Positions 3,228 to 52,335 of a DNA stretch of 64,000 nucleotides are shown here, one piece after another. Where the stretch lies: positions 75,746 to 139,745 of the forward strand of contig CAIWXX010000120.1 of assembly GCA_903916735.1 (NCBI GenBank), given 5' to 3'. The notes under the pieces are model-generated. The model ran no database searches. It worked only from the letters and a program-made list of their open reading frames with translations, and had not been told where the DNA came from. Source of the DNA: an uncultured Acidobacteriota bacterium (lineage in GTDB: Bacteria > Acidobacteriota > CAIWXX01). A program made the translations under genes and the position numbers. Numbering within the stretch: position 1 is the stretch's first letter; every line of letters begins with the position of its first letter.

Positions 3228-4682
3228 TTATAGGGGGAGGTCGGAACTGAAAACTTCCCTGCCATCACGGTCGAACGCGTGAATCTTAACCAACACCGGA
3301 ACGAAAGGCACCTGGAACTCGGTATCGACTTGCTTGTACCGGCTGATTCTAAAAGAAATCCCCCGCCTGAACTCCAGACGCATATCAGAAACAACCCAAT
3401 CGGCCGGGTAAATCATCTTGGATGATCCATCCGCGGATGAAGCAATCAGAAATAGGAATCCCCGCAGCTCGCTCCCGAGTTCGCCGCTATTCACCAGGCG
3501 AAACCCGATCCGATATCCTCCATTGGCAAGAGCCGAAAATTGAACGTCTTGAAGCTGAATTACGGCGCCAGGTGCTTCAGGAATGGTTGCCTGTGGGGGA
3601 GGCGGCGGCGTGGATGTCGTCGAAGCATCTTCCTTAATTTCTTCCGGCTGTGGCTGCACCGTCGTCGTGCTTTGAGCGGGCGGCGTCACAGGCCCGGATG
3701 GCAGATGATCCGCATGCGATACGGGAGATCCCGTCACAGATGGCCGGCTTCGGGTTGACCGGTAATAGAAAGCTGCAATGACGGCGAGCACGGCGCAAAC
3801 CGCGAGAATTCCGCCGCGCTTTGCATTCCGTCGAAATGATAGCTGCCGGTCCAGGGCGCTGATCCTGGACGATTCATTACGGAAGAAAAAATCTGGAGGC
3901 AATGCAGGCTCAATCGCTGCTCCCTCGCTATTCCTTTGCGATGAAACCGCTGCCAGCGCACTCACGGGAGGCGGTGTTTCAGCGGCCATCGGATCATCAG
4001 AGACAATCAGCTTGTGTAGTTTTTGAAGGCCATTCAACATCCGCAACAGCTCGAGCTCCTCCATCAACCCAAGACCGATTAATTTACGAATGGAGTAGCG
4101 TCCGTTGAGGAGTGGCAGGATTTCCTTTTCCTTCGGGAGGAAATCAATCCCCTTGCCTTGGTCAGGGCCATTCATCATGAACTTGATATAGCTCTTGAGA
4201 TTAAGAACCTGACGAAGAAGGATGGCACTGCCCATGCGCCGCGCCCCTTCCATCACAATATTCGGGGTTTGAAAATTGAGACGCAGAACCTCGTCTCTTT
4301 CGAGTTCCCTCTGCTTGAAACTGTAGTCGAGGCCCTCCAACTGGAAGAGACTGTAAATGATCCGAGTCGCCTGAAATTTGATGCCCCAATACAAATCCTC
4401 GGGGGAGAGGAATCCTTTATAGACGAGCACGGTGCCGAGCATGGTGCATGCATTCATCAGCTTCTCAGCATCGATCAACTGTTCAGGCGAAATTTTCTCG
4501 GCCTCGATGAGCAGGTTGCCAAGGCTGTCCTGAGGGAGATTTGAAACAGCGAAAATAATCCGCCCTTGCTCGAAATAAACCTTTTTTTCGAAGGCCTCGC
4601 CCTTCACGAGCAGCTCGCCTGTTGCCTTTTCAAGGTAGAGGCGGCTGATCTCGCCGAGAAGTGCTAGCTCTTTGTTTTCCAT
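3228..4682 (-). CDS. DUF4388-domain single-pass membrane protein with Pro/Thr-rich linker and periplasmic C-terminal domain
   Basis: N-terminal ~110 aa matches the DUF4388 pattern (LGEISRLYLEKATGELLVKGE...KVYFEQGRIIFAVSN...LGNLLIEAEKISPEQL). One hydrophobic segment (GILAVCAVLAVIAAFYY), a PTPPAQSTTTVQPQP...TPPPPPQ linker, then ~140 aa C-terminal domain. Confidence 0.6.
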   Translation of the reverse strand: MENKELALLGEISRLYLEKATGELLVKGEAFEKKVYFEQGRIIFAVSNLPQDSLGNLLIEAEKISPEQLIDAEKLMNACTMLGTVLVYKGFLSPEDLYWGIKFQATRIIYSLFQLEGLDYSFKQRELERDEVLRLNFQTPNIVMEGARRMGSAILLRQVLNLKSYIKFMMNGPDQGKGIDFLPKEKEILPLLNGRYSIRKLIGLGLMEELELLRMLNGLQKLHKLIVSDDPMAAETPPPVSALAAVSSQRNSEGAAIEPALPPDFFFRNESSRISALDRQLSFRRNAKRGGILAVCAVLAVIAAFYYRSTRSRPSVTGSPVSHADHLPSGPVTPPAQSTTTVQPQPEEIKEDASTTSTPPPPPQATIPEAPGAVIQLQDVQFSALANGGYRIGFRLVNSGELGSELRGFLFLIASSADGSSKMIYPADWVVSDMRLEFRRGISFRISRYKQVDTEFQVPFVPVLVKIHAFDRDGREVFSSDLPL

Positions 4683-7227: not shown

Positions 7228-8223
7228 CTACTTCTCCAGCTGTTCTAACGGTTTCATGGTCCAACGATATTCAAGGACCGGTTCAACTTTCCCGTGGATG
7301 GGAAGGAACCGTTCCAAATTCCCAAAGAGGATATCGAAAAGCGTCACTTTCTCCTTGGCGGGCTCGACAATCTTCGGCTCGCCTTTGAGGCCGGCGAGTT
7401 TTGAGGCCAGTGTAATTGCATCCTGGAGGTTGCCGATCTCATCGACGAGTCCGAGCTTCTTGGCATGAGCTCCGCTATAGGCACGGCCGTCAGCGAGACG
7501 CTTCACTTCCTCGATCGGCATTTTCCGACCTTCAGCGACGCTCTCGACAAATTGCTCGTGCATCTCATTGATGAGCTCCTGGAAGTATTGCTTCTCTTCC
7601 TCGGAGGGATCCCGAACCGGCGAGCCGGCGGCCTTCATGGCGCCGCTCTTAAAAGTGACGTCTTTCAACTTTGCCCAGCGATAGAGATCTCCATAGTTGG
7701 TCCAATTTGCGATGACGCCGATGGAGCCGGTCAGGGAGCCCGCATTGGCCACAATTTTCGTCGCGCCACAGGCGATGTAATAGGCGCCCGACGCGCCGAC
7801 CGTGCTGATTGAGGCGACCACAGGTTTTTGGGAAGTATCACGGACGCGCTTGACTTCCTCGTAAATTTCCTGAGACGCGGCGACACCCCCACCCGGGCTG
7901 TTCAGACGAACCACAATCGCCCGGATCGATGTATCCTTTGCGTATTTCCGAATCAAATCGACAGTTTCTCGAGGCTCTTCAATAACGCCGGTCACTTCGA
8001 CAAGCGCAACCTTGTCTCCACCGAAATTCAGATCCAGGTTGTCACCCTGACCAAAACTTGAAGCAAGCAGAATCAACAGACTGATAAAGACGATAAAGAT
8101 GGCGAAGACTCCGCCCAGGAAAAGGAAGAGTTTTCTTCGTGATCGAGACGGAGTGATCGACGGCGGCGGTGTTAGGGGCGGAGGAGGTGGGGGTGGGTAA
8201 ACCTCAAATCCGCCGTCAGACAC
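7228..8223 (-). CDS. sppA: Signal peptide peptidase SppA (S49, 36K type)
   Basis: N-terminal Pro-rich region then one TM, S49 fold motifs (IVVRLNSPGGGVAASQEIYEEV...GSIGVIANW...AKKLGLVDEIG); 331 aa. Confidence 0.8.
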   Translation of the reverse strand: MSDGGFEVYPPPPPPPLTPPPSITPSRSRRKLFLFLGGVFAIFIVFISLLILLASSFGQGDNLDLNFGGDKVALVEVTGVIEEPRETVDLIRKYAKDTSIRAIVVRLNSPGGGVAASQEIYEEVKRVRDTSQKPVVASISTVGASGAYYIACGATKIVANAGSLTGSIGVIANWTNYGDLYRWAKLKDVTFKSGAMKAAGSPVRDPSEEEKQYFQELINEMHEQFVESVAEGRKMPIEEVKRLADGRAYSGAHAKKLGLVDEIGNLQDAITLASKLAGLKGEPKIVEPAKEKVTLFDILFGNLERFLPIHGKVEPVLEYRWTMKPLEQLEK

Positions 8224-8250
8224 CTGATCTTCTCCGATACGATGTGATTT

Positions 8251-10044
8251 CTATCGTGAGTTTTCGTGTTCGTCTTTGTTGGACCCCTGCTGGTTCGCCG
8301 TCATCTGCTCGGTCGCTTCCCGCAAGTAGTCGCCAAGACTGGTTTTGCCGGCCGTCCCGCTCGATTGCTGATATTCCGCGACCTCCTGGCGTTCTTTGTC
8401 CAGGATGGCAGCGCGTATGCTCAGACCGATCTTCTTCTCGGCATTGTTGATCTTGATGATTTTTGCCTGCACAGAATCTTCCGGCTTGAACTTGTCTTCC
8501 GGTTTTTCAATGCGTTTTTCATCCAGCTCGCTGACATGGATCAGCCCTTCTATGCCCGGCTCCAACTCAACGAAAACTCCGAAATTCGTCACGCGCACGA
8601 TCTTCGCTTCCAGAACATCACCTACTGAATGCCGGCGAACAAAGTCATCCCAGACGTCCGGTTGGAGTTGTTTGATCCCGAGGGAGAGTCGCTGGTTGGA
8701 ACTATCGATGTTCAGAATCATGGCATCCACGATATCGCCCTTTTTCAGGACCTCGGATGGATGTTTGATTTTCTTAGTCCAGCTCAAGTCAGAGACATGA
8801 ATGAGTCCGTCGATTCCGTCTTCGACTTCAACGAAGGCTCCGAACTCAGTCAGATTCCGAATCTTGCCCTTAATGACCGAACCGATCTGATACTTTTGAG
8901 CGAGCATATGCCACGGATTGGGTTCCGTCTGCTTCAATCCCAGCGAGATCCGTTTGTTGGCCTGGTCGATATCAAGGACCTGCGTTTCGACAGAGTCGCC
9001 GACAGAGAGGATTTTGCTTGGGTGCTTGATTCTCTTGTTCCAGCTCATCTCCGAAATGTGGATCAGTCCTTCGACCCCATCACCCAGCGAAACGAATGCG
9101 CCGTATTCCGTCAGACTGATCACCTTTCCGCGGACGCGACTTCCCACAGGGTATTTCTCAGCGACCGACTCCCACGGGTCCGGCTGCCGTTGCTTGAACC
9201 CAAGCGATACGCGCTCGTTTTCGCGATCAAATTTAAGAACCACCACTTCAACTTCATCGCCGGGCTGAAAAAGCTCGGAGGGATGATTGATCCGCCCCCA
9301 CGACATGTCGGTGATGTGGAGCAGGCCATCGATGCCGCCGAGGTCGATGAATGCTCCGTAATCCGTGATATTCTTAACAAAGCCCTTGATGACAGCGCCC
9401 TCTTGCAGGGTTTCCAGCGTCACTTTCTTGCGGCTGATGTTTTCTTCTTCGAGAACAGCCTTGCGGCTGAGGACGATATTGCCGCGCTTTTTGTTGACCT
9501 TGATGACCTTCATCTGGAGGTCGCGGCCTTTGAGCGAATCGATGTTGCGAACGGGTTTGATGTCCAGCTGGCTGCCGGGCAGGAAGGCTCGTACGCCGAT
9601 GTCAACCGCAAAACCGCCTTTGATCCGTTCAATGATCCGGCCGGTGACGGTTGATTTCTCGGTATAGGCACGCTCGATCTGATCCCAGACCTTCATTTTC
9701 TCGGCCTTTTCGCGGGATAAGACGATGTATCCTTCGACGTCCTCAGATTGTTCCAGAAGCACGTCGATTTGATCGCCCGGCTTGACCGAGATGCGGCCGC
9801 CTTCCATCATGAATTCTTCGATCGGGATGATGCCTTCGCTCTTGTACCCGATGTCGACGATGACCTCGGATTCATTAACTTTCAGGACGGTTCCCTTAAG
9901 GACTTCCCCTTCGGAGAAACTCTTCATCCCGCTCTCGTAATTCTCCAGCATTTTTTCGAATTCGGCCGCTTCCGGATCATTCTTGGCCGAACCAGTGGGA
10001 CCACCCTCCTTTCTAATCAACTTCGATGGTTTGTGTTCGCTCAT
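8251..10044 (-). CDS. rpsA: 30S ribosomal protein S1
   Basis: Six repeated S1 RNA-binding domains (G.V.G.V.....GAFVDLG..EGLIHISE); 597 aa. Confidence 0.9.
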   Translation of the reverse strand: MSEHKPSKLIRKEGGPTGSAKNDPEAAEFEKMLENYESGMKSFSEGEVLKGTVLKVNESEVIVDIGYKSEGIIPIEEFMMEGGRISVKPGDQIDVLLEQSEDVEGYIVLSREKAEKMKVWDQIERAYTEKSTVTGRIIERIKGGFAVDIGVRAFLPGSQLDIKPVRNIDSLKGRDLQMKVIKVNKKRGNIVLSRKAVLEEENISRKKVTLETLQEGAVIKGFVKNITDYGAFIDLGGIDGLLHITDMSWGRINHPSELFQPGDEVEVVVLKFDRENERVSLGFKQRQPDPWESVAEKYPVGSRVRGKVISLTEYGAFVSLGDGVEGLIHISEMSWNKRIKHPSKILSVGDSVETQVLDIDQANKRISLGLKQTEPNPWHMLAQKYQIGSVIKGKIRNLTEFGAFVEVEDGIDGLIHVSDLSWTKKIKHPSEVLKKGDIVDAMILNIDSSNQRLSLGIKQLQPDVWDDFVRRHSVGDVLEAKIVRVTNFGVFVELEPGIEGLIHVSELDEKRIEKPEDKFKPEDSVQAKIIKINNAEKKIGLSIRAAILDKERQEVAEYQQSSGTAGKTSLGDYLREATEQMTANQQGSNKDEHENSR

Positions 10045-35495: not shown

Positions 35496-35573
<78 letters not shown>

Positions 35574-37096: not shown

Positions 37097-37107
37097 GAAT
37101 TTAATGG

Positions 37108-37181
37108 TCGGGACGAGAGGATTTGAACCTCCGACCACACGCACCCCAAGCGTGTGCGCTACCAGGCTGCGCTACGTCCCG
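37108..37181 (-). tRNA. tRNA-Pro (anticodon GGG)
   Basis: Reverse complement: acceptor CGGGACG/CGTCCCG+A, identical D- and T-arms to the first tRNA-Pro, anticodon stem CACGC/GCGTG with loop TTGGGGT. Confidence 0.85.
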
Positions 37182-44912: not shown

Positions 44913-46823
44913 TTAGCTGATCGGTCTTTTCACCTTCAGATTTTTCATCAAACGGTGGAGGTAGTTTGAGTTGAGGCCGAGCGATTTGGCCGCTTCAGTG
45001 ATCACTCCACCCGCCTGATCAAGAGCGCGGAGGATGAGCTGCCGTTTGGCTTCGTTGACGGCATCGACGTAGCGAGCACTCGATTTATCGGCCTCAGGTT
45101 TGGATTCAACGAGCGCATCCGGCAGGTCTTCGGGCCTGATGAGATCGTCGAGTCCCATGACAACGGCCCGTTCAATCACATTCTGCAATTCGCGCACGTT
45201 GCCGGGCCAGTCGTACGCCAATAGGCACTCGCGCGCCTCGGGCGAGATCCCCGTCACGATCCGATTGACTTTTTTCGCATACAGAGCGCAAAAGTGGCCC
45301 GCCAGCAAAGGAATATCTTCCCGGCGTTCTCTCAACGACGGCATGGTGAACGGGACGACATTGAGGCGGTAGTAGAGATCCTGGCGGAATGCTCCCTTGC
45401 CGATTTCTTTTTCAAGATCCCGATTGGTGGCCGCGACGACTCGAATATCCACTCGAACCGGGCGGGTGGCGCCCACTCTTTCAAACTCGCGCTCCTGAAG
45501 AACCCGCAGCAACTTCAACTGCACGGCGGGAGACATCTCCCCGATTTCATCCAAAAATATTGTCCCTTCATCGGCAACTTCGAATTTTCCGATTTTTCGC
45601 GCGATCGCCCCCGTGAAGGCTCCTTTCTCGTGGCCGAAGAGCTCGCTTTCGAGCAGCTGTTCGGCGAGAGCGGCGCAGTTGATCGCGACGAAAGGCTTAT
45701 CGGCGCGCGGGCTGTTGAGATGGATCGCACGAGCCGCAAGCTCCTTGCCGGTACCGCTTTCGCCTCGAATCAGGACCGTGGAATCGGAATGAGCGACACG
45801 CGCGATGGAACGATAAATCTCCTTCATCGCAGGGCCGTCGCCGATCATGCTGGAAGCTATTTGCGTTTCAGCTGCCAGGCGCGCATTTTCATTCTCGAGC
45901 CATTCCACTCTCTGAGCCTGTTCGATCGGCGCCGATGCGATGCCGGCAATCGCCGTCAACAAGTGAAGATGATTTTCATCGAATGGGAATGCCGGATCAG
46001 TCGTATCAATATACAAAGCGCCGATGACGCGCTCCATGACAGATAGCGGGGCGCAGAGGACGGACTGGATGCGAGCTGTGACAAGGCTCTTCACCTGCCG
46101 CCACTCCTCATCGGCCACCACGTCGGTGCTCCAGACCGCCACCTTCTTGCGCAGCACATACTGGATGAGTGTACGGCTGACAGCAAAGGGTTGCGCGGAA
46201 TCCTTTTCCTTCGACCGAACGCACACCGGTTCGATATCCCCAGTATGCCTGTCCACAATCAAGACGCCGCCGTGTTCAGCCGGAATCGCATCGAAAGCCA
46301 GATCGAGCAGCCGCTGGGCGAGTGGTTCCACCCCATGCACCGTACTGACGGCAGCAGCGACGCGAAGGAGAGAATTGAGGTCGCGAATCAGCCTCCCGCG
46401 CGCCGAAATCGATTCCAGCAGCCGGCCGGGCTGCAAATGGAGCGCATCGGATGGTTCCAGTTGAATGGTTGTCTTGGCCGTGAGCGTCACATCCTGCAGT
46501 TCCATCCGGCGGGATGTTGATGTATGGTCATCGTCTTCCAAGAAAAAAACAAAATTCACCGGCCCGATGCGGATGCGGTCGCCTTGCCCCAGAAAGCATG
46601 TTGTGACAGCTTGGCCGTTGACCCGCGTCCCGTGCATGCTATCGAGATCCGTCAGCCGGAATTCGCCTCCCTCCTTCTTGATGATGCAGTGCCGCCGTGA
46701 GACAGCGGCCTCAGGAATCACAATCGTGTTCGCAGGGCTGCGCCCGATGCTCACCTCCTCATCTGATAACACAAAGTCCTTCCCGATCAGCAGACCATCG
46801 ACAGCGACAAGTCGGGGAGGCAT
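44913..46823 (-). CDS. Sigma-54-dependent transcriptional activator with N-terminal FHA and central GAF domains
   Basis: FHA ([25 protein letters not shown]...GTRVNGQAV). GAF. AAA+ with [23 protein letters not shown] (intact GAFTGA). C-terminal HTH. Confidence 0.85.
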
Positions 46824-47142
46824 TACATCACACGCCTTCCGCCGTTAATCGAAGGGAGCCTCGTGTTGTGAAACCGAGTGCTTTCCGAATCATTTCCCCC
46901 CGCCAGGACAAACGGTTGTTTCAGAAAGAGTATACGGCGAATATCGATCCTGCGGCAACTGTGAAAGGGCGATCGTCAGGAAACCAGCTTAAGTTTTCGC
47001 TCAGGATGCCGCCGTGCTTCTGTGAAGCCGAGGACGCGTTGTCACCGCAGCCGGCGAGCAATATGGCAGAGGCAGTCTATCGGAGATCTCAGCGGGATGC
47101 CCTATAGACTCACGGCCTCGAATTGGACCAAGGTCCAATGGC

Positions 47143-48004
47143 ATGGCCTTGGTGCTTATGGCAGTTCTGTTGATAATATCGGCGGTGGCCGGCGCTCCGA
47201 TCGAGGATCAGGCCAATGCAGGCATGAGCCCGAACCTGGCGCCGCTTCTGAAAGATCCGATGATGGGAATCCGCATCGAGGCCGCGCAGCGGCTTACCGG
47301 CGTGCCTTCGGAGATGTTGACGGAGCCGCAAACAGATGCCTTCAAGTCGACCATGGCAGAGTACCGGTCAAGCCTGGAGTTTACTGCTGACATGCCTTCC
47401 GACCGATACAATCGGGGCATTCTGGAACAGAGTCTGAACCAATTGGGGGAGGCTGAGCTGTAATACAGAAAAGCACTCGACATCGACGGCCAATTTCTAC
47501 ATGGCAGCCATGAATCTTGCGATTTTGCTCAGCCAACAAGGGCGTAATCCCGAGGCCGAGACGCTTCTGCGACAGGCGGTTGACACAAACCCGCACAACG
47601 CAGCCGCAGCATTCGACCTTGGGCTGCTGCTTGCGGAGATAAGTAATAAGAGCGAGGCGCTGCAGCGGCTCTGCGAAAGGCGCTGCAAGCTGACCCGACC
47701 ATGGCGCAAGCCGCGTATCTGCCGCCGGGCGGCCGAGCAACGCCCGGGCGAGCCCAAGTATGCATTCGCCCGCGCCTACTACCAGCTTCGAAATGGAAAG
47801 GAAAAGGACGCAGTGGCCACGTTGGACCCGCTGGTGAAAACCTATCCATCCTACGGCGATGCCGTCCTGATGCTCGACGGGCTCTACGAGAAACATGGCC
47901 GTGTGAAGGAGGCCGCCGAGGTCTACGATCGGGCTTTGGTCACGACAGGGCTGCCTGAGGAGTACAGATCACAGATCGCGGCGCGGAGGAATGCCCTGCA
48001 CTGA
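47143..48004 (+). pseudogene. Frameshifted TPR-repeat protein gene
   Basis: TPR-like coding is spread over three frames (ORFs 47143-, 47501-, 47701-) with stops between, e.g. ...LNQLGEAEL* / YRKALDIDGQFL / AAMNLAILLSQQGRNPEAE... / ...AYYQLRNGKEKDAVATLDPLVKTYPSYGDAVLML... Confidence 0.5.
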
Positions 48005-48061
48005 TCGGATTCCATTTGTGCCTGAACACCCTTACCAGACGCAGCATCTTGTCGCAATCCT
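47855..48061. repeat. Copy 1 of a ~207-bp direct repeat (TPR gene 3' end plus downstream sequence)
   Basis: ggcgatgccgtcctgatgctcgacgggctctacgagaaacatggccgtgtgaaggaggccgccgag...ctgatcggattccatttg...gcatcttgtcgcaatcct is repeated at 49540..49746 with ~87% identity. Confidence 0.8.
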
Positions 48062-48276
48062 CGCAGCCGCACGGAGAGTCCAGCCCGCGTCATGCACATG
48101 GAAACGCGGCCTGAAGTCCGCGCTACGAGAGTTGAAGGCGAACGGTGCACAGCCCCCGGCTCTCGAACAGCACCCGGTGTCGCCGAAGCAACGGCAGTCG
48201 CTGAAACATACATCTTGGCAAGTTAGCCATAATGGAATATGCTCCATAATAGATTAACTAAACAGGAGGAATATCC

Positions 48277-49440
48277 ATGATACAGACGCTGCCTCGGCTG
48301 CTGAAGATGAAGCTTCCGAAGGGGCAGTCCACCTTCTTGTGGGGACCAAGGAAAACAGGTAAGACCACTTTCCTCAAAGCAGCCTTCCCAAACAGCCTGA
48401 GCTATGATCTGCTTCAAACCGACCTTTTCCTCGAGCTCGTCAAGCGCCCCTCTCTACTGCGGGAGCAGCTTCTTGCGGCATCCCCGAAGCAATTGGCGGA
48501 GCCGGTCATTATCGACGAAGTGCAGAAAGTGCCTCAGCTGCTTGACGAAATTCACTGGCTGATCGAAAACAAGGGTATGCGGTTTATCCTGTGCGGCTCC
48601 AGCGCAAGGAAATTAAAACGGGGGAAGGCGAATCTGCTCGGAGGTCGCGCCTGGCGCTACGAGATGCACCCGTTTGTTTCACCAGAGGTGGCTGACCTTG
48701 ATCTGCTCAGAGCGCTCAACCGGGGAATGATACCCTTGCATTACATGCAGGTGGAATTCCGCAAGTCGCTGCAGGCTTATGTTCAGGACTATCTCAAAGA
48801 GGAGGTGTTCGATGAAGGATTGACCCGGAATATCCCGGCCTTCTCCCGGTTCTTCGATGCGATGGGCTACTCTCACGGAGAACTGACAAATTATGCGAAC
48901 ATAGCACGGGACTGCGGCGTCGACGCGAAAACCGTCAAGGAGTATTACCAGATCCTTGTCGATACCCTTCTTGGCACAATGATCGAGCCGTACAAGAAGC
49001 GGCAGGACCGCAATGTGATAATCAGGGCTGGCAAATTCTATCTGTTTGATGTCGGTGTTGCCGGGGCCATCACCCACCGCCAGATCCCGCAGGAGAAAGG
49101 CGAGCAGTTCGGAAAGGCAATCGAACATTTCATCCTGATGGAACTGCTTGCCCATCGTACGTACCGGGAGCTGAACTACGATGTGAATTTCTGGCGGACG
49201 AAGTCAGGATTGGAAGTGGATTTTATTCTAGGTCAGGGAGAAGTGGCTATCGAAATAAAAGGGACAAGCCGGGTCGATAGCACAGACCTGCGTCCACTCA
49301 AGACGTTTATCCAGGAGTACCGGCCTGCAAGAGCGTTTGTTGTCTGCAACGAAAATGTTGCTCGGGTGCACGAGGATATTCGTATTTTGCCGTGGCATGA
49401 ATTTCTTAGAATGTTGTGGAACGGGGAAGTGATATCGTGA
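48277..49440 (+). CDS. AAA+ ATPase of the COG1373 / DUF4143 family
   Basis: Walker A FLWGPRKTGKTT. Walker B VIIDEVQKVP. C-terminal DUF4143-like region. Visibly lower GC than flanks (about 50-53%). Bracketed by the 207-bp direct repeats. Confidence 0.75.
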   Translation: MIQTLPRLLKMKLPKGQSTFLWGPRKTGKTTFLKAAFPNSLSYDLLQTDLFLELVKRPSLLREQLLAASPKQLAEPVIIDEVQKVPQLLDEIHWLIENKGMRFILCGSSARKLKRGKANLLGGRAWRYEMHPFVSPEVADLDLLRALNRGMIPLHYMQVEFRKSLQAYVQDYLKEEVFDEGLTRNIPAFSRFFDAMGYSHGELTNYANIARDCGVDAKTVKEYYQILVDTLLGTMIEPYKKRQDRNVIIRAGKFYLFDVGVAGAITHRQIPQEKGEQFGKAIEHFILMELLAHRTYRELNYDVNFWRTKSGLEVDFILGQGEVAIEIKGTSRVDSTDLRPLKTFIQEYRPARAFVVCNENVARVHEDIRILPWHEFLRMLWNGEVIS

Positions 49441-49539
49441 ATGGAGAAAAATGTAATGAACGAAAGAAACAACCTCAACACGAGACAAGAGTCGCGTCGC
49501 GCCGCGCCGGATCCGCTGATGATCGACTTTCCGTCAGAC

Positions 49540-49746
49540 GGCGATGTTGTCCTGATGCTCGGCGGGCTCTACAAGAAACATGGCCGTGTGAAGGAGGCCG
49601 CCGAGATCTACGATCGGGCTTTGGTTCCGCCCGGGCTGCCTGAAGCATATAAAGCGCGGATCGCTGCGCGGAGGGATTCTCCGTGCTGATCGGATTCCAT
49701 TTGGGCCTGACCCCGCGCGCCAGACGCCGCATCTTGTCGCAATCCT
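49540..49746. repeat. Copy 2 of the ~207-bp direct repeat; includes a duplicated TPR C-terminal fragment (ORF 49441..49689)
   Basis: See copy 1. ORF 49441 ends ...GDVVLMLGGLYKKHGRVKEAAEIYDRALVPPGLPEAYKARIAARR, paralleling ...GDAVLMLDGLYEKHGRVKEAAEVYDRALVTTGLPEEYRSQIAARR. Confidence 0.8.
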
Positions 49747-50261
49747 GCGTGGAGCCAGAGCTGCCGTGAGGAAAATTGAACTCAGCGATGCCCTCTGGAT
49801 GTCACTCCCTGCGGCGACCGAACGGCCTCCCAATGGCCACCGTCTTGCAGAGCTCAAGCCGGAACAGGTTCAGTTTCCTTTTACGAGATCACCAAAAAAT
49901 CCGCGTCGACATCACGAACGGGGGACAGCAGTCACACGATTTGATCTGCGATGACGCCACTCGTGAACGGCTCGTGGCAACTCGTGCAGATGCCGGCAGG
50001 CACATTCTTGACCAGCTCGACAGCATGAGTGAACAAAAAGGGCACGTTAGCCCTGCCTTGCCTGAGCCGTTCACCGCAAAGCGGACAACAGCTATTTGGC
50101 GAATCAACTGCATTTTCCGGGCAGTATCCATCTCATAGGAATACGATACCAACGACACTGACATAACCCCAGGGTTACCGCAGCGCCGGAGGCGCGAAGG
50201 AACCCCTGAGATTCACCATGCCATGTTGACTAGTCTGGTCAGACCAAGTAAAATCAATTCC

Positions 50262-50540
50262 ATGCAGAGAACCTATTCAATTTACGAAGCGAAGGCCAAG
50301 TTCAGCGAGATCATCCGAGCGGTGAAGATGCGCCGGAAGGTCGTTGTCACCGAAAGAGGTACCCCGGTCGCCGAGGTAGTGCCATATCAGGAAGAGGCTG
50401 AGGAATCGATGTCAGGACGGCTGGAGAGACTTACCCGAATGGGGGCTATTGTCCCAGCTGCCGGCAGATTCAGTGCAAAAACCATGAAAGTGCTCCCGGG
50501 CGCTTCAGAGCGATTTCTGAAGGAGGACCGTGGCGATTAG
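50262..50540 (+). CDS. Type II antitoxin, Phd/YefM family
   Basis: MQRTYSIYEAKAKFSEIIRAVKMRRKVVVTERGTPVAEVVPY matches the Phd/YefM fold. It overlaps the downstream PIN toxin gene by 11 nt. Confidence 0.75.
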   Translation: MQRTYSIYEAKAKFSEIIRAVKMRRKVVVTERGTPVAEVVPYQEEAEESMSGRLERLTRMGAIVPAAGRFSAKTMKVLPGASERFLKEDRGD

Positions 50541-50937
50541 GCCGATTGCAGCCTATATCGACACCTCGCTGCTGATCCACGTCAGATTCGAGGAAGCGGG
50601 GCGCCGGTTCGCGCGGCGCATCGAAGCGTACGACCATCTGTTCTCGGCCGAATTGCTCCTCGCCGAGATGTACGCATTCGCCATGCGTGAGGGCGTCGAC
50701 CGCGTCGATGTGCTCGAAGCGGTCAATGGAATTTCATGGGTCATTCCTGACCGTCCGCTCGCAGGCGAGCTGGCCCGAGTCATCGAACAAAAATACGTGC
50801 GCGGCGCCGATCTCTGGCATCTTGCATGCGCCTGCTATCTATCCCCCGTGTCGGAGAGCGTCGCTTTTCTCACGAGAGATTCTGTTCAGCTGCAAATCGC
50901 CCACCGCCTCGGACTACAGACCCCGGAGTTTGTCTGA
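50530..50937 (+). CDS. PIN-domain toxin (VapC-like)
   Basis: AYIDTSLLI (first acidic residue), ...AELLLAEM..., ...FLTRDSVQ (conserved D). GTG start after AGGAGG; 135 aa. Confidence 0.75.
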   Translation: MAIRPIAAYIDTSLLIHVRFEEAGRRFARRIEAYDHLFSAELLLAEMYAFAMREGVDRVDVLEAVNGISWVIPDRPLAGELARVIEQKYVRGADLWHLACACYLSPVSESVAFLTRDSVQLQIAHRLGLQTPEFV

Positions 50938-51210
50938 AACCACACTGCCCCTCGTCCCAAGCAAGAAATGGGTGTCTCACAATTATTAAGATCAATATGA
51001 AGGGTATTTCGGCCACATCAAATCCGACGTCAAAACTGGCTACGCCATCTTATTCTGCCCCAGCCCTGATGCTATGGTTTTTGCCTTTGCCTTTTTATTT
51101 TCCCAAATCGGCGCCTCATCCGCGGACTTGGGCAACGCACTGGGGATCGCCTCCGTCGATTGCCTTGAACTGGAGAACTTGTGATCCGCCGGATGATGTT
51201 GCAGCGGGAA

Positions 51211-52335
51211 TCAGACCAGGCCCTTCAGGAGTGTGAGAGCCTGGGCCACCCGTATCCCTTCCGGGCTCTGGTAATCCTTCGAGCCCGCTGCCGTAACCTG
51301 CCAGGCTTCGCATGCCGGGAACCGGGCTTTCATGTATCGCAGGCCCTTGTCGATCTCCTGATCCCCCCACTTGCACTCCACCATGAGGATGGGCTTCGTT
51401 CCTTCGACAACCACAAAATCGACCTCCCTTCCATCCGTGTCTCTGAAGTACCTCAGCTCGACGTCCCTCCCGTGGACATCCTGCTCCCAGTGAGCCCATT
51501 TGAGAAGGTGCGCGGCGACGAGGTTCTCGAAACGTGGCGCATCGCCCGGCACGAGCGTCCAGTCCAGGTGATAGTGCTTTTGTTCCTTTTTGACGGCGCG
51601 GATCCGCGGTGCTCCGAAGGGGGAGAGACGAAACACGGCATAGAGCCGTTCGAGGATCCCGAGCCAGCGACCAACGGTCTTATGGCTGAGCTGCAGGTCC
51701 TCGCGGATGGCGTTGATAGAGAGCGGGGAGCCGACCAGCTCGGGCAGGCGGATCATGAGCAACTCGAGGTTTCCGAGATCCTCGACTCGTTCGAGGCTGG
51801 TGATGTCCTCCCGCACGAGCCGGCTGCGGTATTCCCTAGACCACCGGCGGGATTCCACATCCGAACCTCCAAGAAAGGGCTCGGGGAACCCTCCGAGTCT
51901 CAGAAGATCGTTGAAGTCGCGAATAGTGACCATGTCCAACTCGGCCACCGAGAAGGGGTGTAGCCGGAGGAGATGGTAGCGGCCTTGAAGGGAATCCCCT
52001 CCATAGCGGTACAGGTCGAGGCGTGCGCTGCCAGTGACAAGGATTTTCCGCTGCGGCCGCCGGCTGTCGAACAATCCCTTGATGTAGCCGCGCCATGAAC
52101 GGTATTTATGTATCTCGTCGAAGATCCACAGAGGTCCGGGCGGAAGTTCGCGCCTGAGTATTCTCTCGCGGTCCTGCGCGACGTCCCAGTCAAGATATCC
52201 GGCACGTCCACCAGGCAGGCTCCTGACGAGAGTCGTCTTGCCGACCTGGCGCGGCCCGGCGATGAAAACCATCTTACGCCTGAGATCCTGCACGACCTGC
52301 GGCGCGAGATATCGCCGGAACAGCCTTGCCGCCAT
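51211..52335 (-). CDS. AAA+ ATPase of the COG1373 / DUF4143 family (second, GC-rich paralog)
   Basis: Walker A IAGPRQVGKTT. Walker B IFDEIHKY. C-terminal DUF4143-like; 374 aa. Confidence 0.75.
   Translation of the reverse strand: MAARLFRRYLAPQVVQDLRRKMVFIAGPRQVGKTTLVRSLPGGRAGYLDWDVAQDRERILRRELPPGPLWIFDEIHKYRSWRGYIKGLFDSRRPQRKILVTGSARLDLYRYGGDSLQGRYHLLRLHPFSVAELDMVTIRDFNDLLRLGGFPEPFLGGSDVESRRWSREYRSRLVREDITSLERVEDLGNLELLMIRLPELVGSPLSINAIREDLQLSHKTVGRWLGILERLYAVFRLSPFGAPRIRAVKKEQKHYHLDWTLVPGDAPRFENLVAAHLLKWAHWEQDVHGRDVELRYFRDTDGREVDFVVVEGTKPILMVECKWGDQEIDKGLRYMKARFPACEAWQVTAAGSKDYQSPEGIRVAQALTLLKGLV

Follow-up and report, generated by a model that had tools for sequence, protein, structure and literature searches.

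Direct Repeats of a Host Gene End Around a Mobile PDC-S01-Type ATPase Cassette in an Uncultured Acidobacteriota Bacterium

Introduction

Genomic islands and prophages integrate into the 3′ ends of tRNA or protein genes and supply a replacement gene end, as e14 or phage 21 does in icd. Foreign DNA can also be anchored on one homologous segment, by homology-facilitated illegitimate recombination or by Campbell-type integration; the known classical cases of such anchored recombination give an insertion plus a deletion and no duplication. Here we analyze a 64,000-nt stretch of the genome of an uncultured Acidobacteriota bacterium (GenBank assembly GCA_903916735.1, contig CAIWXX010000120.1, positions 75,746–139,745 of the forward strand), referred to below as the window, in which a gene for an ATPase with AAA_14 and DUF4143 domains stands between two direct repeats of the 3′ end of a TPR gene. 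All coordinates are positions in this 64-kb window unless a locus is named; copy A is the repeat upstream, and copy B the repeat downstream, of the ATPase gene.

The closest described family is PDC-S01, a single-gene phage-defence candidate identified by “guilt by embedding”. Its members are described as fusions of an ATPase with PD-(D/E)XK that rank fourth in frequency among defence candidates and have undergone repeated inter-domain transfer; defence activity has so far not been validated for this candidate (PMC12988326). DUF4143 itself is listed in the PD-(D/E)XK superfamily (PMC3424549). Defence genes move between genomes very quickly, often without a recognisable vehicle, and here a common candidate gene acts as a minimal cassette. 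The locus described below is the scar left by the acquisition, long ago, of an ATPase cassette of the PDC-S01 type that is highly mobile and self-contained; beside it lies an independently decaying pseudogene.

The ATPase Gene and Its Cassette

The sole gene between the repeats (48277–49440, forward strand) was identified with Pfam and PADLOC as encoding an AAA_14+DUF4143 ATPase of 387 amino acids. It scored 67.0 bits with AAA_14 (cut-off 27) and 99.1 bits with DUF4143 (cut-off 28.1). Seven PADLOC models of PDC-S01 matched it (best E = 5.4e-49), and both DUF4143 ATPases encoded in the window matched this family strongly; the link to defence drawn in an earlier, first-pass annotation of the same DNA thus corresponds to a match with a candidate family. 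Walker A (G23-x4-G28, K29, T30), Walker B (D80, E81), and D315 were invariant across two subfamilies. In the ATPase between the repeats, D315 is followed by E326-x-K328, and an E-x-K also follows the EVDF motif in the second ATPase of the window. To judge from family membership and these conserved motifs, the protein most likely acts as an ATP-dependent nuclease-type defence effector. Its AlphaFold model was confident in the AAA+ and C-terminal alpha/beta domains but modest overall (pLDDT 58), and because of this quality a fold search returned only generic AAA+ matches (ORC, RFC, RuvB); a sequence search of the PDB returned no match. Pfam recognised no transposase domain in the protein, only AAA_14 and DUF4143.

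A single AAA+ DUF4143 gene with its own promoter and an AGGAGG site had been annotated here, and both signals were found on the forward strand: a promoter-like TTGGCA-17-TATGCT of the sigma-70 type (48215–48243) and the ribosome-binding site AGGAGG (48264–48269). A palindrome, ATGGA-N6-TCCAT, lies over the −10 box (48229–48243; −48 to −34 from the ATG) and is perfectly conserved in 35 contexts, where it might serve as an operator in autoregulation. The G+C content of the gene is 52.7%, lower than the 58% of the 3-kb flanks but close to the 54.3% of the whole window. Its description as a low-G+C gene therefore holds only weakly, and base composition is no strong signal here.

We found 8000 homologues of the ATPase; the best 120 had 83–92% amino acid identity and lay mostly on contigs of 1.3–3 kb. 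We collected 87 ATPase loci (numbered with the prefix L) from context look-ups and a metagenome scan and clustered them by flank similarity. They formed 52 flank-context clusters, and the flanks of the window were common only to locus L094. Across these 52 distinct contexts, a cassette of about 1.24 kb was retained at 82–97% DNA identity. Homology of the window to foreign contexts started at 48177–48257 (mode 48215) and ended at 49440–49463, while the nearest pairs of loci from different contexts were 90–97% identical over only 1227–1303 bp, from −62 to −132 before the start codon to +1 to +28 after the stop. Along the unit, identity was flat at 0.92–1.0, and it collapsed abruptly beyond both ends. 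Internal gene conversion, considered as a cause of the high identity, was rejected because identity stayed flat right up to the ends of the unit.

In 35–39 contexts, conservation extended from TGTTGAC (−64) to about 7 nt past the stop codon, and this short conserved tail forms the 3′ edge of the cassette. DNA homology to foreign contexts and family-wide conservation place the mobile promoter-to-stop cassette at 48177–49447 on the forward strand. The left extent of the shared unit differs by sub-lineage (−62 to −132), and such varying left ends look like imprecise ends eroded by repeated transfer to a minimal functional unit rather than fixed transposon termini. The −35 region matched the reverse complement of the ORF (open reading frame) end at 9–10 of 16 positions; this resemblance was rejected as a signal, being within chance, and both sequences are otherwise constrained.

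The G+C content of the gene stays at 52–57% across contexts, whereas that of the flanks spans 42–60%. At 90% clustering, the housekeeping proteins of the window are singletons, whereas the cluster of the ATPase takes in foreign contexts. A protein from a metagenome-assembled genome of Gammaproteobacteria belongs to the 90%-identity cluster of P0006, which is itself 90% identical to the window ATPase, and the regulator of the window is closest to Acidobacteriota (65%; inferred taxonomic assignment). The cassette has thus probably spread across phyla. The sequence comparisons show that it is horizontally mobile as a unit, from the −35 box to just past the stop codon. That the ATPase is acquired, mobile DNA had been proposed before, and the same promoter-plus-ORF unit in 52 unrelated contexts bears it out.

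No relatives of the ATPase were found in viral contigs of IMG/VR, and the best plasmid match was 38% identical. Pfam searches found no recombinase between the repeats, within about 8 kb of the locus, or in seven other annotated contexts. Neither terminal inverted repeats nor short target duplications were consistent at the cassette ends across contexts, and no contig provided evidence of multiple copies.

The Direct Repeats and the TPR Remnant

The direct repeats, found by a repeat search and confirmed by MAFFT alignment, lie on the forward strand at 47816–48061 (copy A) and 49501–49746 (copy B). They are 246 nt long, align without gaps at 82% identity, and differ at 45 of 246 positions. The first-pass annotation had described 207-bp repeats with about 87% identity; the repeats are real and longer than this, and identity over the core (47855–48061 and 49540–49746, 207 nt) is 84.5%. 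At the protein level, similarity between the copies reaches back to 47792 and 49477, respectively (about 270 nt). Each copy comprises the last ~62 codons of the TPR ORF, the in-register stop codon (48002–48004 in copy A, 49687–49689 in copy B), and a non-coding trailer of 57 nt. The trailer, with 86% identity, is the best conserved part of the repeat; it showed no stable fold in a folding check. Copy A is contiguous with the rest of the TPR pseudogene, while copy B is an orphan 3′ fragment with its 57 downstream nucleotides and directly abuts the imported segment. Substitutions between the copies are spread evenly over codon positions (13/11/13), with a ratio of nonsynonymous to synonymous divergence (dN/dS) of about 0.55.

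BLAST of either copy against the whole window found only its partner (E = 4e-66), hence no third copy that would delimit a larger island in these 64 kb. The repeat search detected no inverted repeats in 46000–51000; no tRNA genes were present within about 10 kb of the locus and no Rfam matches in 46.5–53 kb. In themselves, the repeats are ordinary in kind.

The metagenomic source, the breakage of many assemblies into contigs of ~1.3–2 kb at the ATPase, and the end of L001 inside the repeats could point to a mis-joined or expanded repeat. The same gene order was, however, present in at least nine independent metagenome assemblies, obtained in different projects with different assemblers, on contigs of up to 149 kb. 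Since these assemblies agree on an identical arrangement and the copies are 18% diverged (45/246 positions), the arrangement is not an assembly artefact—a possibility raised at first annotation, to which we assign practically no weight; the 18% difference also excludes a collapsed or expanded repeat.

The host gene is preserved as a remnant at 47143–48004 (forward strand), recognised by TPR matches in Pfam, three-frame reading, and alignment with homologues as the C-terminal ~290 codons of a multihaem-cytochrome/HEAT/TPR gene. The TPR matches fall on the ORF at 47501–48004. Reading of 46825–48008 in three frames revealed an in-frame TAA (47461–47463) and frame changes near 47490–47500 and 47655–47720; compared with the closest intact homologue, P0127, about 50 nt (~17 codons) are deleted. 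In homologues P0122–P0135 and P0158 (410–500 amino acids), the TPRs are preceded by CxxCH haem motifs and HEAT repeats. The alignment of P0122 with the window begins only at its residue 125 and is spread over two frames; the window lacks the N-terminal haem/HEAT part, and no full-length ORF of this architecture (CxxCH haem part and HEAT repeats before C-terminal TPRs) was found there. Only about 320 bp separate the remnant from a divergent gene for a sigma-54 regulator. The TPR gene of the window is therefore a 5′-truncated, frameshifted pseudogene, and the decay by frameshifts noted earlier is confirmed and extended by a stop codon, a deletion, and the 5′ truncation.

The ATPase gene had also been described as inserted at the 3′ end of this gene. 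The insertion is not a disruptive one: copy A keeps the complete TPR C-terminus with its stop codon, and the acquired DNA starts 57 nt past the stop, leaving the ORF uninterrupted.

In a relative, L095 (JGI 3300024056, 1774 bp; aligned to 47232–47814), the haem-binding N-terminal part of the cytochrome/TPR gene is kept. This gene also reads in three frames, with frameshifts unlike those of the window, which reflect either independent gene decay there too or sequencing errors in the contig.

A Syntenic Relative and the Age of the Repeats

P0127 is encoded on L094, a contig of 1177 bp (JGI 3300004481) that aligns to 47511–48651 of the window at 77% identity. It contains the last 180 TPR codons uninterrupted, the same spacer of ~260 nt, and then the start of the same ATPase, with 94% amino acid identity to the window protein over 125 residues. 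Because L094 combines an intact TPR 3′ part with the same spacer and ATPase, the decay of the TPR gene appears to be independent of the ATPase, which would not have killed the gene. The first-pass annotation had named a relative with the same arrangement and an intact TPR gene as speaking against its reading, and L094 is such a relative as far as the last 180 TPR codons are concerned.

Synonymous divergence (dS) between the window and L094 was 0.48 in the TPR part and 0.56 in the ATPase (dN/dS 0.04); the similarity of the two values is as expected for co-inheritance. The spacer that forms the left arm of the imported segment (48062–48176, forward strand) is shared only with L094 (~73% identity) and is absent from the other 51 ATPase contexts.

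Between copies A and B, dS was 0.29–0.35 and non-coding divergence 14%, compared with 0.48–0.56 and ~23–27%, respectively, between the window and L094. Three-way branch lengths were 22 (A), 20 (B), and 31 (L094) of 241 sites. The repeats are old, with 18% divergence, yet appear younger than the split between the window and L094. The lower divergence of the copies speaks against an origin of the duplication at the first arrival of the ATPase behind the TPR gene and fits a donor closer than L094 that already carried TPR gene, spacer, and ATPase. Of the insertion or duplication-capture event proposed at first annotation, the integration remains, the repeats being best read as its junctions, while a simple target-site duplication at first arrival does not agree with these values.

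The Right Junction and the Proposed Origin of the Repeats

Downstream of the cassette, the imported segment continues in a right arm, or tail (49448–49500, forward strand), with the start of a small ORF (ATGAACGAAAG...), which the foreign locus L110 likewise has behind its ATPase. The tail is 80% identical to positions 4357–4401 of L110 over 45 nt. Since it is shared with a foreign locus, the imported DNA reaches as far as the left edge of copy B; had the duplication been present before the ATPase, this contact would be coincidental.

We consider it somewhat more probable than not that the repeats are junction duplications of an old, homology- or att-anchored integration of imported DNA (about 48062–49500) and that copy B is the displaced native gene end. 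A donor segment consisting of a TPR 3′ end, the spacer, the cassette, and the tail would have come from a related genome that already had the cassette behind its TPR gene. It would have integrated with the conserved TPR 3′ end as the recombination anchor, so that copy A would be donor-derived. Possible routes are homology-facilitated illegitimate recombination, a Campbell-type single crossover involving a circularised fragment, and att-type site-specific exchange in trans; a trans-acting site-specific recombinase is suggested by a tRNA-Arg case described below. The other junction would have fallen ~246–270 nt upstream of the end of homology, and because of this, the native gene end with its 57-nt trailer would have survived as orphan copy B right after the imported tail. 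Both copies would then have drifted nearly neutrally to 82% identity, and the TPR gene would have decayed independently.

Several points weigh against such an integration. The L094 contig ends inside the ATPase, short of any copy B position. For the timing, only ~46 synonymous sites were available, and gene conversion between A and B could have blurred it; the even 13/11/13 distribution of their differences is not the ortholog-like signature observed at L119 (see below). Microhomology at the right junction of the window amounts to at most a few bases. An empty site, with the TPR trailer joined directly to 49747 and onwards, was not found among the contigs examined, and all eight contigs with the 167-amino-acid TPR ORF include the ATPase, provided that they extend far enough. 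Clean host-derived repeats occur in only ~6 of ~45 contexts, and the sharp-ended arrival of the cassette in entirely new contexts is not explained by anchored integration. Synteny with reference genomes gave no empty site either; the relatives of the regulator (best 65%, Acidobacteriota) share no neighbouring genes with the window.

The small-ORF start of the tail continues in frame into the TPR fragment of copy B, giving a chimeric ORF of 77 amino acids at 49456–49689 on the forward strand (82 amino acids if it starts at 49441). It is called as a gene in ENA contigs; its TPR matches are weak and below threshold, and it is probably not functional. In several unrelated contexts, the ATPase stop is followed by a conserved Shine-Dalgarno-like AGGGGAAAG, an ATG, and the beginning of a short ORF (MNERNN.. 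or MMNERSS..): at 49441–49500 in the window, at 4357–4401 in L110, and just past the ATPase stop in several loci. This sequence may be what is left of a lost partner gene.

Flanking Repeats at Other Loci

Same-orientation repeats flank the cassette in 13 of the 64 testable loci. With one representative per context, repeats within 600 bp were present in 7 of 41 contexts compared with 2 of 93 control intervals (Fisher p = 0.004). In L149, the 95-bp repeat is the 3′ end of an upstream SPASM-domain gene plus a trailer of ~40 nt, and its second copy begins at the ATPase stop codon, at a GCGTGA microhomology. The 65-bp repeat of L119 has 9 of its 17 differences at third codon positions, an ortholog-like pattern. 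In L143, the repeat (80–100 bp, 89% identical) is the 3′ part of a convergent BadF/G-family gene, and the same gene-end fragment travels with the cassette in L132/L134, in a different context. In L160, a 75-bp repeat (91% identical) surrounds a 1304-bp insert placed before a 38%-identical paralogue. A protein-level search for older flanking repeats added no cases.

These loci bear on whether the window repeat has anything to do with the ATPase at all. It might be a pre-existing local duplication of the TPR end, or copy B might be the remnant of a tandem TPR paralogue, the cassette having landed in, or replaced, the DNA between. The adjacency of TPR gene, spacer, and ATPase looks older than the A/B split, the differences between the copies look neutral, and the locus is a region of flux with a toxin–antitoxin pair and a second DUF4143 ATPase, all of which agrees with an unrelated repeat. 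We nevertheless regard it as distinctly improbable: copy B starts exactly where the imported tail shared with L110 ends, which would then be a coincidence; independent contexts (L149, L096, L119, L160) show the same layout, with a second copy of a host gene end immediately behind the cassette; and repeats are enriched around the cassette relative to the control intervals.

Flanking repeats at four further loci were rejected as junctions, because L126 has a third copy, the repeat of L136 is REP-like, and those of L130/L139 are of low complexity. The element of L126 is a dispersed repeat of 173 bp, found around the ATPase cassette at 2276–2447, 4186–4358, and 8219–8391 with 97–98% identity.

In L096, L102, and L178, from three samples, the ATPase alone is bracketed by a perfect 46-bp repeat that covers tRNA-Arg(ACG) between its anticodon loop and CCA, both included. 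Housekeeping genes and no integrase are located downstream of this cassette, and the sequences of L102 and L096 part within the second repeat. A general rule of tRNA targeting was rejected, since only 2 of the 52 contexts adjoin tRNAs.

The tRNA-Arg case speaks for a mini integrative islet mobilised in trans: the window repeats would be attL and attR of an integrase-less element of ~1.7 kb, integrated into the 3′ end of the TPR gene by a tyrosine recombinase encoded elsewhere, and the islet would supply a surrogate TPR gene end (copy A) and displace the native one (copy B). The geometry matches that of islands integrating into gene 3′ ends, and the repeat from anticodon loop to CCA has the canonical layout of a tRNA att site. 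The divergence of L102 and L096 inside the second repeat looks as if further exchange had occurred there, and the window repeat is best conserved in its unstructured, non-coding 57 nt. An integrase was, however, found in or near none of the eight annotated contexts. Targets as varied as a TPR gene, tRNA-Arg, a SPASM gene, a BadF/G gene, and intergenic DNA would call for a wide range of specificities, the arms that separate repeat and cassette show no conservation from one context to another, and repeat lengths range from 32 to 270 bp. On balance, we judge a trans-mobilised islet rather unlikely.

A self-mobilising element is very improbable in our estimation. The AAA+/PD-(D/E)XK protein would move its own 1.24-kb cassette, and the long repeats would be variable-length target duplications produced by staggered cleavage. 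The very sharp ends of the unit in 35–39 contexts (−35 box, stop codon), the geometry of an insertion sequence with one ORF filling the unit, the conserved nuclease and Walker motifs, the lack of any other mobility gene nearby, and the enrichment of flanking repeats are all in line with this. Against it, the repeats do not abut the conserved unit on the left, where the arms measure 9–460 bp and are not conserved; most contexts are without any repeat, and the left end varies from −62 to −132 by sub-lineage. Terminal inverted repeats, a consistent short target duplication, and multi-copy evidence within one contig were not found, and the A–B repeat appears younger than the adjacency of TPR gene and ATPase. 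More broadly, the DUF4143 ATPase-nuclease cassette might represent a novel kind of autonomous mobile element, its own protein driving its spread into new sites and the long, variable repeats of adjacent host sequence being the footprint of integration. This seems to us quite improbable; if it were true, a part of the abundant PDC-S01/COG1373 family would be selfish mobile DNA, instead of or besides defence.

Just downstream of the cassette in L004, a gene for a small outer-membrane beta-barrel protein is bracketed by direct repeats of 50 and 24 nt (7414–7496 / 8256–8336). L005, 99.8% identical to L004 upstream, diverges just past the first repeat copy and has different genes there.

Neighbourhood of the Locus

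Copy B is followed by a 534-bp stretch without a called gene (49690–50222). It contains an ORF of 120 amino acids without Pfam, PADLOC, or NCBIfam matches and may be degraded sequence native to the site. Next, overlapping ORFs at 50223–50937 (forward strand) encode a Phd/YefM antitoxin (105 amino acids) and a PIN-domain toxin (135 amino acids). The second AAA_14+DUF4143 ATPase (374 amino acids; 51211–52335, reverse strand) belongs to another subfamily, is 22% identical to the first, and matches PDC-S01; it has thousands of homologues with 73–84% identity, the named matches being Acidobacteria, Thermoanaerobaculia, Alphaproteobacteria, and Burkholderiales. The stretch with the Phd-PIN pair between the two ATPases is a small defence/toxin–antitoxin islet. 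No flanking repeats were found around the second ATPase, the Phd-PIN pair, or the whole islet.

Neighbouring DUF4143 ATPases of different subfamilies (24–38% identity), as in the window, were also observed in L160 (1927–4526), L099 (4447–7158), and L110 (1743–4301), which suggests shared landing spots. Two tRNA-Pro genes (CGG and GGG) lie 1.5 kb apart at 35496–35572 and 37105–37181 on the reverse strand and are unrelated to the repeats and the cassette.

Comparison with Known Systems

The ATPase agrees with PDC-S01/COG1373 in the same AAA_14+DUF4143 pair above the Pfam thresholds, in its matches to PDC-S01 hidden Markov models, in Walker A and B, and in the D...ExK motif. Promoter-to-stop cassette behaviour and host-derived flanking repeats were not found described in the papers retrieved. 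This wider pattern—a promoter-to-stop unit in more than 50 contexts, occasional host-derived junction repeats, and no recombinase—is the lead of interest, and the abundance of PDC-S01 may partly reflect mobility. The cassette offers a testable system for how single defence genes are transplanted, whether by anchored homologous or illegitimate recombination, by recombinases acting in trans, or by self-mobility.

Compact insertion sequences and integron cassettes resemble it in a single ORF that fills a unit of ~1.2 kb, in sharp ends, and in occurrence in many contexts. Unlike insertion sequences, the cassette lacks a transposase domain, terminal inverted repeats, and a consistent short target duplication; the flanking repeats measure 32–270 bp and are kept apart from the unit by arms that are not conserved, and most contexts have none. 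It differs from integron cassettes, whose ORFs usually lack a promoter, in having one of its own and in ending ~7 nt past the stop codon, with no integrase domain, no attC-like inverted repeat, and a tail without a stable fold.

With islands and prophages at gene 3′ ends and with integrase-less cis-mobilisable elements, the locus shares imperfect direct repeats of the target 3′ end, with the gene complete on one side and an orphan fragment on the far side. In the window, the element lies between direct repeats that stem from the 3′ end of its target, as between attL and attR, and so it does in the parallel tRNA-Arg case, where the repeat runs canonically from anticodon loop to CCA. The differences are that the cassette carries no integrase, excisionase, or other gene and spans only ~1.4–1.7 kb, that targets vary, and that the arms are not conserved. 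No recombinase was detected by Pfam within ~8–10 kb on either side, as a tyrosine-recombinase island would have it, or in the seven other annotated contexts.

Anchored recombination differs from the locus in that a duplication is observed here, and it does not explain the sharp cassette ends in unrelated contexts. It resembles the locus in needing no recombinase encoded by the element, and it explains why the repeat is the end of a neighbouring conserved gene, as well as the variable divergence of the repeats (74 to 100%), the third-position pattern of L119, and the junction microhomology of L149.

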